This document shows positions 25,641 through 28,316 of a DNA stretch of 64,000 bases, piece after piece. Position 1 is the first letter of the stretch, and each line of letters begins with the position of its first letter. The notes under the pieces were generated by a model, which was not told the origin of the DNA, did not search any database, and worked only from the letters and a program-made list of their open reading frames with translations. The stretch lies in contig DVIS01000026.1 of the NCBI GenBank assembly GCA_018711135.1, positions 3,172 to 67,171 on the forward strand, read 5' to 3'. A program made the position numbers and the translations under genes. Source of the DNA: Candidatus Onthousia faecavium (GTDB taxonomy: Bacteria; Bacillota_I; Bacilli_A; RF39; UBA660).

Positions 25641-26783
25641 ATGAAGAGAAAAAAGCTAATTCTTTATCATACTAATCCATTACAATTTGGAGGAGTAGAT
25701 ACATTTGATTATAATTTCTGTAAAAAAATGCGAGATAAATATAATATTTTATTTCTGTATAAAGATGGAAATTTAGATACTATAAGAAGACTGCAAAAGT
25801 TAAATATTGAGGTTGAAAAATATAATAGTAATAAAAAATATGTTTGTGATATTTGTCTCTTAGCAAGTGCTTGGGGAGGTTATCCTGAAACTGTTATTGC
25901 AAAAACTGGTAGATATATACAGATGATTCATGCTGACTATATAAGAGCAAAAGAAACAGGCTTTGTTTATGAAAAATGGTCTAAAACGACTGAATACGTA
26001 GCAGTAGGAAAACACGTTACATCAGTTTTTAAAAAACTTTATCCTAAAGAAAAGGTAACAACTATTTATAATATATTAGATGATAGACAAGAAACACATC
26101 ATGTATTAAAACTAATATCAGCGACTAGAGTCTCAAAAGAAAAAGGCTACGATAGAATGTTAAAATTAGCTCAAGCTCTAAAAGAACATAACATAAAATT
26201 CAGATGGATTATCTTTACCGATTTAGAACTTTATCAGCAAAAACCTTTTGATTTGGAAGAAATAGTTTATATGAAACCATCACATGATATATTTGATTAT
26301 ATAGTTGAAGCCGATTACGGAGTGCAACTATCAGATACAGAAGGTTACTGTTATTTTGTTAATGAGTGCTTACAATATGGTACACCAGTTATTTCTACTA
26401 ATTATCCGAGTAGTTATGAATCTATTGAGGACGGTGTTAATGGTTATTTATTAGATATGGATTTATCTAATTTAGATATAGATAAAATTGTAAATAGTAT
26501 TCCTAATAGATTTAATTATATTGAAAAAGGTAATACTACTGATTGGACTAAGTTATTCAATAAGAGAGTATATATACCTAAAATAAAATATGAGATTATA
26601 GCTTTAAAAGATTATATTGATAAAAGGCCAGAACTTATAATTGATGATGCATTTGAACATAATGATGCAGGAAATGCTATAATAAGAAAAAATAATATTT
26701 ATTATTTATATGACAAAGAAAGAGCTAAAGAATTGTTAGATACAGGATATGTAAAAATAGAAAAGATTAAGGAGGGTAAATGA
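25641..26783 (+). CDS. GT-B fold glycosyltransferase (group 1 / GT4-like)
   Basis: 380 aa. ISATRVSKEKGYDRMLKLA, then SDTEGYCYFVNECLQYGTPVISTNYPSSYESIEDGVNGYL, matches the C-terminal nucleotide-sugar binding half of group-1 glycosyltransferases. Confidence 0.75.
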   Translation: MKRKKLILYHTNPLQFGGVDTFDYNFCKKMRDKYNILFLYKDGNLDTIRRLQKLNIEVEKYNSNKKYVCDICLLASAWGGYPETVIAKTGRYIQMIHADYIRAKETGFVYEKWSKTTEYVAVGKHVTSVFKKLYPKEKVTTIYNILDDRQETHHVLKLISATRVSKEKGYDRMLKLAQALKEHNIKFRWIIFTDLELYQQKPFDLEEIVYMKPSHDIFDYIVEADYGVQLSDTEGYCYFVNECLQYGTPVISTNYPSSYESIEDGVNGYLLDMDLSNLDIDKIVNSIPNRFNYIEKGNTTDWTKLFNKRVYIPKIKYEIIALKDYIDKRPELIIDDAFEHNDAGNAIIRKNNIYYLYDKERAKELLDTGYVKIEKIKEGK

Positions 26784-27223
26784 AATATAGTGTTATAAGG
26801 AAATTAAAAAATGATCAAACATTATATGAAAAAACTTACAAACTTTTAAATGAAAGGATACAACTAAAAATAGAAGAAACTCTGGGATTACATGGTTTTA
26901 CATTCGATGAGGTTAAAGTTCAACATGAAAAACATCCAGATAAATACACAACAACTTTTGCTGAACTTGAAGAACTTGATAAAAGCAGAACTTTAGTAAA
27001 AAAAGAACGGGATAAAATAAATGATTATTTCAATGAAATAGATAGAGATATAGAAGCTATGTCTGAAATGGAAAAGAAAGTCTTTAAGGCAAAATATTTA
27101 TATGGTCTATCTCATGCTGATATTGCTGCTAAACTTGATTGTTCTGAAAAAACTATTCAAAGAATTATAAAAGAAATAAATGATGATAAAACAGTTGATG
27201 AAGAAATTAAAGAAAATTCATAA
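26780..27223 (+). CDS. late-gene transcriptional activator (sigma-70 region-4-like HTH; RinA/ArpU-type by position)
   Basis: The C-terminus EKKVFKAKYLYGLSHADIAAKLDCSEKTIQRIIKE is a region-4 type HTH. It is the last gene before the packaging module. Confidence 0.65.
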   Translation: MKYSVIRKLKNDQTLYEKTYKLLNERIQLKIEETLGLHGFTFDEVKVQHEKHPDKYTTTFAELEELDKSRTLVKKERDKINDYFNEIDRDIEAMSEMEKKVFKAKYLYGLSHADIAAKLDCSEKTIQRIIKEINDDKTVDEEIKENS

Positions 27224-27242
27224 ATGTCCAGACAATGTCCAG
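27223..27242 (+). repeat. direct repeat AATGTCCAG x2 with 11-bp register
   Basis: Copies at 27223-27231 and 27234-27242, immediately after the activator stop codon. Confidence 0.6.
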
Positions 27243-27301
27243 TAATATATGCTATAGTGCAGTTGGATGATTAGCTAATAAACTAATCTATTCCACGTAA
27301 A

Positions 27302-27330
27302 GGAATATAGAAATATATTCTTTTATTTAT
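27302..27330 (+). terminator. weak AT-rich terminator after the activator gene
   Basis: GGAATATA-GAAA-TATATTCT hairpin 27302-27321 followed by a T-rich run. Confidence 0.4.
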
Positions 27331-27332
27331 TA

Positions 27333-27555
27333 TAATAATAGTTTTAAAACGTGGGTTTGCCAGGGACAATGACAATGCAAACATCTAGCCCTAGTGCACG
27401 CCTGATGAGGATGCTGACTACATCCGAAACATACTAGGAGATGAGAGTAATTAACTCATTGAGTTTTATGAATGTCAACTAGCGTGTAGCGTGGAGTCTT
27501 CCGACTAGGGGAATAACTGAAGACCTAGATGTCCCATGTTTTAAGACTATTATTA
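27333..27555 (+). ncRNA. rod-like structured RNA element enclosing the hammerhead
   Basis: 23 contiguous pairs 27333-55/27533-55, where the only two departures from Watson-Crick are G.U (27351.27537, 27343.27545). There is also an 8-bp helix 27381-88/27525-32 and a hairpin 27356-60/27377-81. Confidence 0.65.
27389..27510 (+). ncRNA. hammerhead self-cleaving ribozyme, stem I open (type I topology)
   Basis: CUGAUGA 27402-27408; stem II GGAUG/CAUCC 27409-13/27421-25 with a G10.1-C11.1 closing pair; GAA 27426-28. Stem III ACAUACUAG/CUAGCGUGU 27429-37/27479-87 starts with A15.1-U16.1. Cleavage triplet GUA, cut after 27488. Stem I is 27397-401/27489-93 plus 27389-95/27504-10. Confidence 0.8.
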
Positions 27556-27574
27556 AAGTGAGGAGAGAATCAAT

Positions 27575-27784
27575 ATGAAAGTAATTGCTATTATAAAATT
27601 TAATGATTTAGAGTCTAATAAGATTAGAGAAGTAAATGATGTATTTGATGTTTCCAAAGAAAGAGCTAAAGTTCTTCTTGAAAAAAAATATGTAAAAGAA
27701 GTAGTAGAGACTGCCACATTAGATAATGATGTAGAGAAAGCTACTATTAAATCTACTAAAGTTAAAAAGAATGCAAAGAAATAA
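27575..27784 (+). CDS. hypothetical protein, first ORF of the late operon
   Basis: GAGGAG RBS; 69 aa. Confidence 0.5.
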   Translation: MKVIAIIKFNDLESNKIREVNDVFDVSKERAKVLLEKKYVKEVVETATLDNDVEKATIKSTKVKKNAKK

Positions 27785-28061: not shown

Positions 28062-28127
28062 TCTGAGTGATAAAAATAATAGTAGTTTTAATTGTATAAG
28101 CTGCATATATTTTATTATTTTAATGCG

Positions 28128-28316
28128 TTTTTTTGCTAAAAAAGCGGCAAAAAGTAGCAAAAAACACTAAAAAATGTCGCTTTTTTAATCGTCTTTAATA
28201 AAAATAGTATCCCCCATATTAGCCCTAGATCCCTTTTATATAAACAACGGGTGCTGGGCCTTCGAAAATTGCGCAGGCCATTTCGCGTGAGGGGTGTGGT
28301 GTCAGGAGGTGTAATA
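28128..28316. other. probable cos/packaging-initiation region
   Basis: Four A5-6 tracts starting at 28138, 28149, 28159 and 28169 (10-11 bp phase), flanked by T-tracts. They are followed by a locally GC-rich island, 28211-28310, between HNH and TerS. Confidence 0.5.

Follow-up and report, generated by a model that had tools for sequence, protein, structure and literature searches.

Type I hammerhead ribozymes (Rfam RF00163), including pseudoknot-stabilized examples from bacteria and phages, were described by Perreault et al. in 2011 (PMC3088659), and the role of hammerheads in these genomes has been unsettled ever since their discovery (PMC3088659, PMC8782182). Here, we analyzed a hammerhead of this type at positions 27389–27510 of a 64,000-nucleotide (nt) stretch of contig DVIS01000026.1 from Candidatus Onthousia faecavium (the window), where it lies in the leader of phage late genes. 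Judged by its homologs, this hammerhead is genuine and under purifying selection. It occupies one loop, L1, of a conserved double-pseudoknot RNA, the scaffold, and the reading that we favor and hold to be moderately probable is that it forms the catalytic L1 insert of a conserved phage RNA module, a self-processing punctuation mark whose cleavage and benefit to the phage are predicted.

The locus shares with known type I hammerheads an identical catalytic core, a three-helix junction with an open stem I, an H17 nucleotide before the scissile bond and an intergenic location in phage DNA. It differs from them in three respects: stem I is no simple helix, its 3′ strand being supplied by an invariant motif of a larger double-pseudoknot RNA; the ribozyme is inserted in a loop and is optional; and stem III carries a 41-nt extension. 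Theta ribozymes, which resemble that of hepatitis delta virus (HDV), adjoin phage transfer RNA (tRNA) genes (Kienbeck et al. 2024, PMC10879173). The present family is similar in placing a self-cleaving RNA, here predicted, directly beside tRNAs in phage arrays, in having a nested pseudoknot fold and in conservation that begins right after the tRNA 3′ end; unlike theta ribozymes, its catalytic motif is a hammerhead, and the window copy has no adjacent tRNA. The GIR1 lariat-capping ribozyme, a double pseudoknot, lies upstream of homing-endonuclease messenger RNAs (mRNAs), whose 5′ ends it forms and protects (PMC2219692). Members of our family also lie upstream of HNH genes (in the window, in phage Constance and at loci L092 and L096), but hammerhead transesterification would replace branching, no sequence or Rfam similarity to GIR1 was found and the element is not in an intron. 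Functional analogies are offered by the tRNA punctuation of polycistronic transcripts and the RNase III processing stems of T7 mRNAs. As in those systems, a structured RNA between cistrons would define RNA ends; the module is interchangeable with tRNA genes at one prophage locus and has a long flank-to-flank helix, H0, like an RNase III processing stem, whereas the cut would here be made by the RNA itself.

Every base that the initial annotation had named for 27389–27510 was confirmed in place. The parts of the hammerhead are the following.

Positions 27397–27401 and 27489–27493, plus strand: stem I, CACGC/GCGTG.
Positions 27402–27408, plus strand: core C3–A9, CUGAUGA (CTGATGA in DNA).
Positions 27409–27413 and 27421–27425, plus strand: stem II, GGAUG/CAUCC (27409–27425 with loop CUGACUA).
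Positions 27426–27428, plus strand: core G12–A13–A14 (GAA).
Positions 27429–27437 with 27479–27487, plus strand: stem III, enclosing the 41-nt insert.
Positions A27429 and T27487, plus strand: the A15.1–U16.1 pair, in place in the window.
Positions 27488–27489, plus strand: predicted scissile bond between A27488 (N17) and G27489 (1.1).

A descriptor comprising the hammerhead core and three helices of at least 4 pairs each found this as the sole site on both strands of the window, compared with a chance expectation of 0.017 sites per window (300 dinucleotide-preserving shuffles). The stem II closing pair 10.1–11.1 is a canonical G27409–C27425. Stem III had been described as eight pairs plus an A·C mismatch; the mismatch stands, and the composition is more exactly seven Watson–Crick pairs, one G·U and one A·C, the latter being an A–U pair at loci L082 and L084. 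Its 41-nt insert holds a small hairpin and the conserved run AUGAAUGUCAA. The local GC enrichment (45.7% in the segment versus 28.5% across the whole window) and the lack of an open reading frame (ORF) were also borne out, as none of at least 40 amino acids spans 27389–27510. Loop II faces the region of L1 and scaffold helix H4, and its UGAC could pair with the stem III insert; neither contact showed covariation.

Homologs were collected by pattern scans of viral contigs and a metagenome scan, yielding at least 164 unique members (family counts throughout are among the matches listed). Two scans used the 3′ part of the element alone and are unbiased regarding the hammerhead core. Among 95 hammerhead-bearing members, C3–A9 reads CUGAUGA (51), CUGACGA (30), CUGAAGA (11) or CUGAGGA (1) and is degenerate in 2; N7 is thus any of the four bases, while the rest of the motif is kept in 93. 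N17 is C in 57, A in 35, U in 3 and never G. All 95 have the A15.1–U16.1 pair, and the 2.1–1.1 pair flanking the cut covaries (G–C 44, C–G 40, A–U 8 and U–A 2). This parse was anchored on GAA, so GAA conservation within it is no independent evidence; G12–A13–A14 is invariant in the 49 hammerhead-bearing members recovered by 3′-domain patterns that exclude the core. Stems II and III have wholly different sequences between members with pairing kept: stem II appears as GAAAG/CUUUC, GAUUG/CAAUC, GAGUG/CACUC and others, and in stem III, counting from the core, pairs three to five covary while the first two never vary. The covariation score of the hammerhead stems was 0.558 in the trimmed alignment, compared to 0.162 after shuffling (0 of 500 shuffles reached it) and at most 0.166 with slid partners. 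All three stems thus covary. Intact cores in 93 of 95 members with variation confined to N7, together with an N17 that is never G, are the signature of selection for catalysis. The comparative evidence is strong and likewise supports the assignment of a type I topology on the late-gene strand with a predicted scissile bond after A27488.

The conserved unit is larger than the hammerhead. The scaffold spans ~110 nt, contains helices H1–H5 and is closed by H0; its strand order is H1-5′, H2-5′, H1-3′, H3-5′, H4-5′, H3-3′, H4-3′, H2-3′, and the family reads 5′ CGUGGG–H1–CA–H2–YUGACAN–H1′–AU–CURG–H3–(L1 insert)–NCGYGGA–H4–CN–H3′–GAAUAACU–H4′–CUAG–H2′–AY. Two pseudoknots result, H2 crossing H1 and H4 crossing H3, the second of them being closed by H5. 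The window copy is laid out as follows.

Positions ~27331–27557, plus strand: the whole RNA module (H0, double-pseudoknot scaffold and embedded hammerhead), taken from the homolog alignment span.
Positions 27331–27350, plus strand: H0 5′ strand, TATAATAATAGTTTTAAAAC, pairing with 27538–27557 (18 of 20 positions complementary).
Positions 27350–27354, plus strand: 5′ motif CGUGG, start of the conserved scaffold, with C, G, G and G invariant and U at 90% or more (52 distinct sequences).
Positions 27355–27360, plus strand: H1 5′ strand, GTTTGC, pairing with 27377–27382.
Positions 27363–27369, plus strand: H2 5′ strand, GGGACAA, in the H1 loop, pairing with 27529–27535 (pseudoknot 1).
Positions 27370–27376, plus strand: conserved loop L2, UGACAAU (family consensus YUGACAN).
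Positions 27377–27382, plus strand: H1 3′ strand, GCAAAC.
Positions 27385–27388, plus strand: H5 5′ strand, CUAG, pairing with 27525–27528.
Positions 27389–27395, plus strand: H3 5′ strand, CCCUAGU, pairing with 27504–27510.
Positions 27489–27495, plus strand: GCGUGGA, the stem I 3′ strand together with the invariant CGYGGA motif of the scaffold.
Positions 27496–27501, plus strand: H4 5′ strand, GUCUUC, pairing with GAAGAC at 27519–27524 (pseudoknot 2, across H3).
Positions 27504–27510, plus strand: H3 3′ strand, ACUAGGG.
Positions 27511–27518, plus strand: A-rich loop GAAUAACU, with AATAACT invariant and the leading G at 90% or more.
Positions 27519–27535, plus strand: continuous 3′ strand of H4 (27519–27524), H5 (27525–27528) and H2 (27529–27535).
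Positions 27538–27557, plus strand: H0 3′ strand, GUUUUAAGACUAUUAUUAAA, ending 2 nt before the Shine–Dalgarno sequence of orf69.

The family covariance model R1 matched the window at 27350–27404 (33.6 bits) and 27442–27538 (36.3 bits), with no second copy. Across 52 distinct sequences, 95.9% of cells in the 30 scaffold pairs are paired and 21 of the 30 pairs show compensatory changes. These include 5 of 6 pairs in H1 (98.4% of cells paired), all 7 in H2 (mutual information up to 1.71), all 7 in H3 and both of the two variable pairs in H4 (100% of cells paired). H5 is a weakly supported helix, with 97.6% of cells paired and variation confined to A–U versus G·U. The scaffold covariation score of 0.609 compares with 0.167 for shuffled alignments (reached by 0 of 500) and at most 0.11 for slid partners, with mutual information up to 1.79. 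Some 45 positions show little or no variation among phages of Bacillota, Actinomycetota, Pseudomonadota and cyanobacteria. The CGYGGA motif is kept even in members lacking a hammerhead, and its CGYGG strand (27490–27494) doubles as the 3′ strand of hammerhead stem I. H4, H5 and H2 may stack coaxially along their continuous 3′ strand. H0 recurs with unrelated sequences at loci L090, L094, L096, L139, L149, L158, L172 and L191 and is missing where tRNAs flank the element.

Several other assignments for scaffold parts were tried and rejected. Pairing of the 5′ GUGGG with the CCCAY after H2 is ruled out, as 27534 varies freely while pairing in H2; L2 as an anticodon-like loop is ruled out by its variation (UUGCAA, CGAACA and AGACUAU); and TTGACA as a −35 box is ruled out, with no −10 element at a fixed distance. 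L2 is complementary to 27473–27477 of the stem III insert in the subgroup of the window, but a kissing contact between the two would be possible in that subgroup alone and shows no covariation.

The L1 loop is modular. Among standard-order members, 92 have a hammerhead there, 38 have nothing and 19 have other inserts, either plain hairpins or the UGAGAUACC motif. Hammerhead-less members contain no separate or trans hammerhead core within 400 nt on either side, and no CUGANGA lies near the hairpin inserts. Because members exist without a hammerhead, the scaffold must have a function of its own. At ~787 of locus L340 (reverse strand), L1 carries a further variant, 66 nt long, that forms neither a hammerhead nor a simple hairpin. 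The module is also circularly permuted in Enterobacterial, Pectobacterium and Dickeya phages and in E. coli prophages, where the same helices are kept in the order hammerhead, 3′ domain, H0 closed as a hairpin and 5′ domain. The cut in this arrangement would leave the entire scaffold at the new 5′-OH end. The permuted form of Pectobacterium phage Pappous lies between the predicted hammerhead cut site and a tRNA-Met, which starts 6 nt downstream.

These findings bear directly on the initial annotation, which had read the locus as a free-standing canonical hammerhead severing the activator transcript from the late mRNA, with its surroundings an extended stem I containing a tertiary-contact loop. 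The core and three stems are indeed present, and in natural type I hammerheads, tertiary contacts are made through internal loops of stem I (PMC3088659). However, the supposed distal stem I (27389–27395/27504–27510) is scaffold helix H3, and the supposed 10-nt internal loop (27494–27503) holds the H4 5′ strand (27496–27501), which pairs, with covariation, to 27519–27524, outside the annotated segment. The conserved unit reaches ~60 nt upstream and ~45 nt downstream of that segment, the hammerhead is an optional insert in a conserved double-pseudoknot RNA and the hammerhead-less and permuted members already contradict an autonomous ribozyme. We therefore consider a free-standing hammerhead very improbable.

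Equally improbable is that the hammerhead is an inactive relic or that the element acts as DNA, for example as a recombination or packaging site. Such a view could draw on the silence of Rfam in the window, the degenerate cores of two members and the presence of the element as an insertion or deletion close to packaging genes. It is opposed by the 93 of 95 intact cores, with variation confined to N7 and N17 never G, and by the strand-specific G·U pairs and pseudoknot covariation, which indicate a folded sense-strand RNA. In particular, H5 contains G·U pairs in 32 of 52 sequences that would be A·C if read on the other strand, identifying the sense strand as the folded strand; on these strand-specific pairs, a DNA-level element was rejected. 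Moreover, the element is always co-oriented with neighboring tRNAs, and members exist far from any packaging genes.

The initial annotation had proposed the Rfam hammerhead covariance models as a check, with background-level scores speaking against a hammerhead, and by this measure the window counts against it: there was no match at the gathering threshold or at E ≤ 10. In contrast to this silence, Hammerhead_1 (RF00163) matches the compact E. coli prophage homolog L223 with 24.7 bits (E = 5 × 10−4; gathering score 34). The window copy probably escapes Rfam through its 41-nt stem III insert and unusual stem I, and the nonmatch is a property of the models and not of the ribozyme class. The scaffold itself belongs to no Rfam 15 family, as judged by searches of hammerhead-less members at the gathering threshold and at E ≤ 10 and of a permuted member; Rfam matches around scaffold members were limited to tRNA, transfer-messenger RNA (tmRNA), GOLLD and the subthreshold hammerhead. 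Near and distant BLAST searches of the window sequence against deposited phages returned no true homolog, and full-text literature searches found no description of the double-pseudoknot scaffold. We regard as an evenly balanced proposition that the scaffold is an undescribed class of functional RNA encoded by phages of at least four bacterial phyla, occupying a tRNA-gene niche, circularly permuted and using the hammerhead as a processing device.

About nine distinct deposited phages carry the element (50,697 records), as do 15 of 5,426 E. coli genomes, the host range in bacterial genomes resting on the E. coli and phage collections; plasmids gave no match. In tRNA arrays, the element fills the spacer exactly, from 1 nt after the upstream tRNA up to the next one, and it is co-oriented with the neighboring tRNAs in 26 of 26 tRNA-adjacent loci. 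At loci L082, L090, L092 and L096 and in phage Constance, it lies upstream of terminase or HNH genes, heading packaging or late modules. A T7-like (Enterobacter) phage has it after the capsid-gene terminator, and lambdoid prophages have it after a tR′-like terminator between Q and the holin gene; the terminator-then-element layout of the window thus recurs in the E. coli and T7-like phage members. E. coli prophages that are 97–98% identical in the flanks contain tRNA-Asn and tRNA-Thr at the same site instead. The scaffold model found one copy per locus, and among the matches listed, only L119 has two.

In the main rival reading, the scaffold is a stand-alone trans-acting small RNA (a phage RNA gene), which might, for instance, serve tRNA metabolism, RNA repair or anti-defense as a decoy or cofactor. 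It would be released from long transcripts through flanking tRNA processing or H0 cleavage, and the hammerhead would merely open L1 or make the 5′ end of the permuted RNA, with no role in late-mRNA expression. In line with this, the scaffold occupies the niche of tRNA genes, fills the inter-tRNA spacer exactly, is allelic with tRNA-Asn and tRNA-Thr in E. coli prophages and is kept in hammerhead-less members. Its ~45 (nearly) invariant positions across four phage host groups suggest a universally conserved partner, and the permuted form of Pappous is bounded by the predicted hammerhead cut and the nearby tRNA-Met. However, no partner or target was identified, many members lie 5–50 nt upstream of a ribosome-binding site like a leader and the recurrent post-terminator position fits a role in cis equally well. 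We judge this whole proposal, including its release and hammerhead components, to be unlikely, although it deserves more weight than the other alternatives.

A further alternative is that the scaffold is itself catalytic, forming a new self-cleaving class that would cut at its own 5′ boundary in the manner of theta ribozymes beside phage tRNAs, or is an aptamer that gates the embedded hammerhead, the whole then being a natural allosteric ribozyme. Either role would suit a double pseudoknot in which many unpaired bases are invariant, and conservation begins abruptly 1 nt past the tRNA discriminator base. Moreover, one strand belongs to both stem I and the scaffold, so that the ribozyme could be controlled by scaffold folding. 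Self-cleaving ribozymes are also known to cluster in phage-like regions (PMC10085705, PMC8782182). Against catalysis, the topology lacks the P3/L3/P1.1 arrangement of HDV-like ribozymes (P1, P2, P3 hairpin/L3, P1.1 and P4): 7 nt alone occupy the place of P3/L3, no Rfam HDV match was obtained and threading the scaffold on the HDV fold was ruled out by the absence of P3/L3. No Rfam ribozyme or riboswitch family matched. A riboswitch among tRNA genes would have nothing obvious to regulate, and instead of having a constant 5′-leader place, many members are located among tRNA genes and are followed by no ORF. The plain hairpins in L1 argue against an obligatory coupled ribozyme. Both versions therefore appear distinctly improbable.

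We return to the favored reading, that of a self-processing punctuation mark, in the genomic context of the window. The features flanking the module are listed below.

Positions 25641–26783: glycosyltransferase gene (group 1), upstream of the late regulator.
Positions 26780–27223: gene with a sigma-70 region-4 domain, upstream of the module.
Positions 27225–27258, plus strand: direct repeat ATGTCCAG-ACA-ATGTCCAG, directly after the sigma-70 region-4 gene.
Positions 27229–27258, plus strand: promoter-like site CAGACA-18-TGcTATAGT (extended −10), overlapping the ATGTCCAG repeat.
Positions 27302–27330, plus strand: AU-rich, terminator-like hairpin GAATATA-GAAA-TATATTC followed by a U-run, just upstream of H0.
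Positions 27352–27559, plus strand: 208-nt segment absent from loci L001 and L002, the L001 junction running from ...AGTTTTAAACCG directly to AGGAGGGAATCAATGTG.

L001 and L002 are the closest relative, with flanking proteins 85–86% identical. The element is accessory, because this closest relative is a phage that lacks it entirely. The leader at 27268–27330 contains two hairpins, GATTAGCTAATAAACTAATC and the AU-rich one, both kept in module-less L001. The latter was read directly from the sequence, as the terminator scan, which required three G–C pairs, did not call it. The promoter-like site is a weak consensus match and is not enriched over shuffles; its sequence is conserved in L001, and the ATGTCCAG repeat and promoter-like site may be a late promoter or activator-binding site. 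Downstream, the order is orf69, the HNH gene, a 175-amino acid ORF that has no Pfam match and takes the place of the small terminase, TerL and the portal gene, TerL being at most 51% identical to that of Bacillus, Caldibacillus, Terrisporobacter and Clostridioides phages. At 80 loci found via the HNH protein, a hammerhead lies upstream in none, and the scaffold covariance model found no copy in 23 loci of HNH relatives.

From the observed sequence, helices, covariation, distribution and context, we infer for the window a course of events that comprises cleavage, what becomes of the two pieces and how the phage would benefit. The late leader would be transcribed past the AU-rich hairpin and U-run, upon which the module would fold and the hammerhead would cut between A27488 and G27489. 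The 5′ piece would comprise the leader, the scaffold 5′ domain and the ribozyme and would end in a 2′,3′-cyclic phosphate; the 3′ piece would comprise the scaffold 3′ domain and the orf69–HNH–terminase mRNA and would start with a 5′-OH. About 36 base pairs of H2, H3, H5 and H0 would hold the pieces together, so that the late mRNA would begin with a compact, nicked knot. The proposal of the initial annotation that cleavage severs the early or activator transcript from the late one is thus too simple. In addition, the activator gene and the element are separated by the conserved promoter-like site, making it more likely that the cut trims the late transcript's own leader. More generally, the module would be accessory RNA cargo that phages carry, and can exchange, in strongly transcribed regions, sharing the niche of phage tRNA genes, where it would define RNA ends without host RNases and would probably shield them. 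A ribozyme held in one loop of a conserved RNA, its fixed place in late leaders and tRNA arrays and its replacement by tRNAs at one locus point to RNA-end definition as the job.

Several observations weigh against this interpretation. The minimum free energy fold of 27389–27510 lacks stem II, and the hammerhead-compatible fold is 2.1 kcal mol−1 less stable. The Rfam 15 hammerhead models are silent on 27300–27600 even at E ≤ 10, and the compact member L177, which was searched at the same cutoff, likewise has no hammerhead match. In the family at large, the 10.1–11.1 pair is G–C in 54, A·A in 25 and U·U in 11 of the 95 members and is non-Watson–Crick in 41 (43%), although the window copy is canonical; the core of Mycobacterium phage Gaia (L218) is degenerate (UUGAUAA). 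L1 is empty in approximately one quarter of standard-order members and contains a plain hairpin in 13%; together with the degenerate cores, these indicate that cleavage is not essential to the job of the scaffold. Finally, tRNA arrays offer no mRNA end to protect.

The surveyed loci also yielded side observations. Locus L119 (237–444) carries two hammerhead-less scaffold copies in tandem. In E. coli NT1W22 (L224, ~440–480), a 38-nt cargo, AACCCGCAGACCTCGCGGAATTGGTGAAAGGTGCCGCG, lies inside the closing stem AAGAGCATTG/CAGTGCTCTT; the same closing stem holds the permuted hammerhead–scaffold in E. coli WCHEC4533. Scaffold-bearing tRNA arrays additionally contain a GOLLD RNA (L206, 632–1115) and tmRNA genes (L172, 3523–3882; L149, 12665–13142). 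The element of Arthrobacter phage Constance (L217, 2440–2720) is flanked by unannotated tRNA-like sequences, and the annotated small ORFs gp67 and gp68 of Constance and gp147 of Gaia (L218, 2501–2647), which overlap the RNA or the tRNA-like sequence beside it, are probably spurious. Streptomyces phage phiSASD1 (L221, 2001–2040) has the scaffold 5′ domain alone, directly after a tRNA-like 3′ end, as an apparent decayed copy. On the reverse strand of L089 (~1221–1253) is an unrelated, compact, canonical-looking hammerhead that is scaffold-free: CCACCC-CUGAUGA-GCUC..GAGC-GAA-ACAUACAAGCUUGUAUGU-C-GGGUG. As to neighboring genes, the glycosyltransferase gene of the window (25641–26783) is possibly a moron, and at L100, a putative glycosyltransferase-like ORF, predicted from its sequence, comes right after the element copy. 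A 190-nt noncoding gap (28062–28250) separates the HNH gene from the ORF in the small-terminase position. In HNH-dependent cos phages, the cos site usually lies between HNH and small terminase.

The family indicates that current Rfam hammerhead models miss a whole branch of hammerheads. Its scaffold is a candidate new structured RNA class with two pseudoknots, natural circular permutation and ~45 (nearly) invariant bases; if this is true, one possibility is a new ribozyme, and another is an RNA that serves a universally conserved host machine as cofactor or acts as its decoy. The locus also gives the role of phage hammerheads a defined, testable setting, with cultured carriers in E. coli lambdoid prophages, Gaia, Constance and the T7-like Enterobacter phage. 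Should this reading of the scaffold be true, it would give phage hammerheads their first concrete biological setting, that of self-cleaving punctuation interchangeable with tRNAs.

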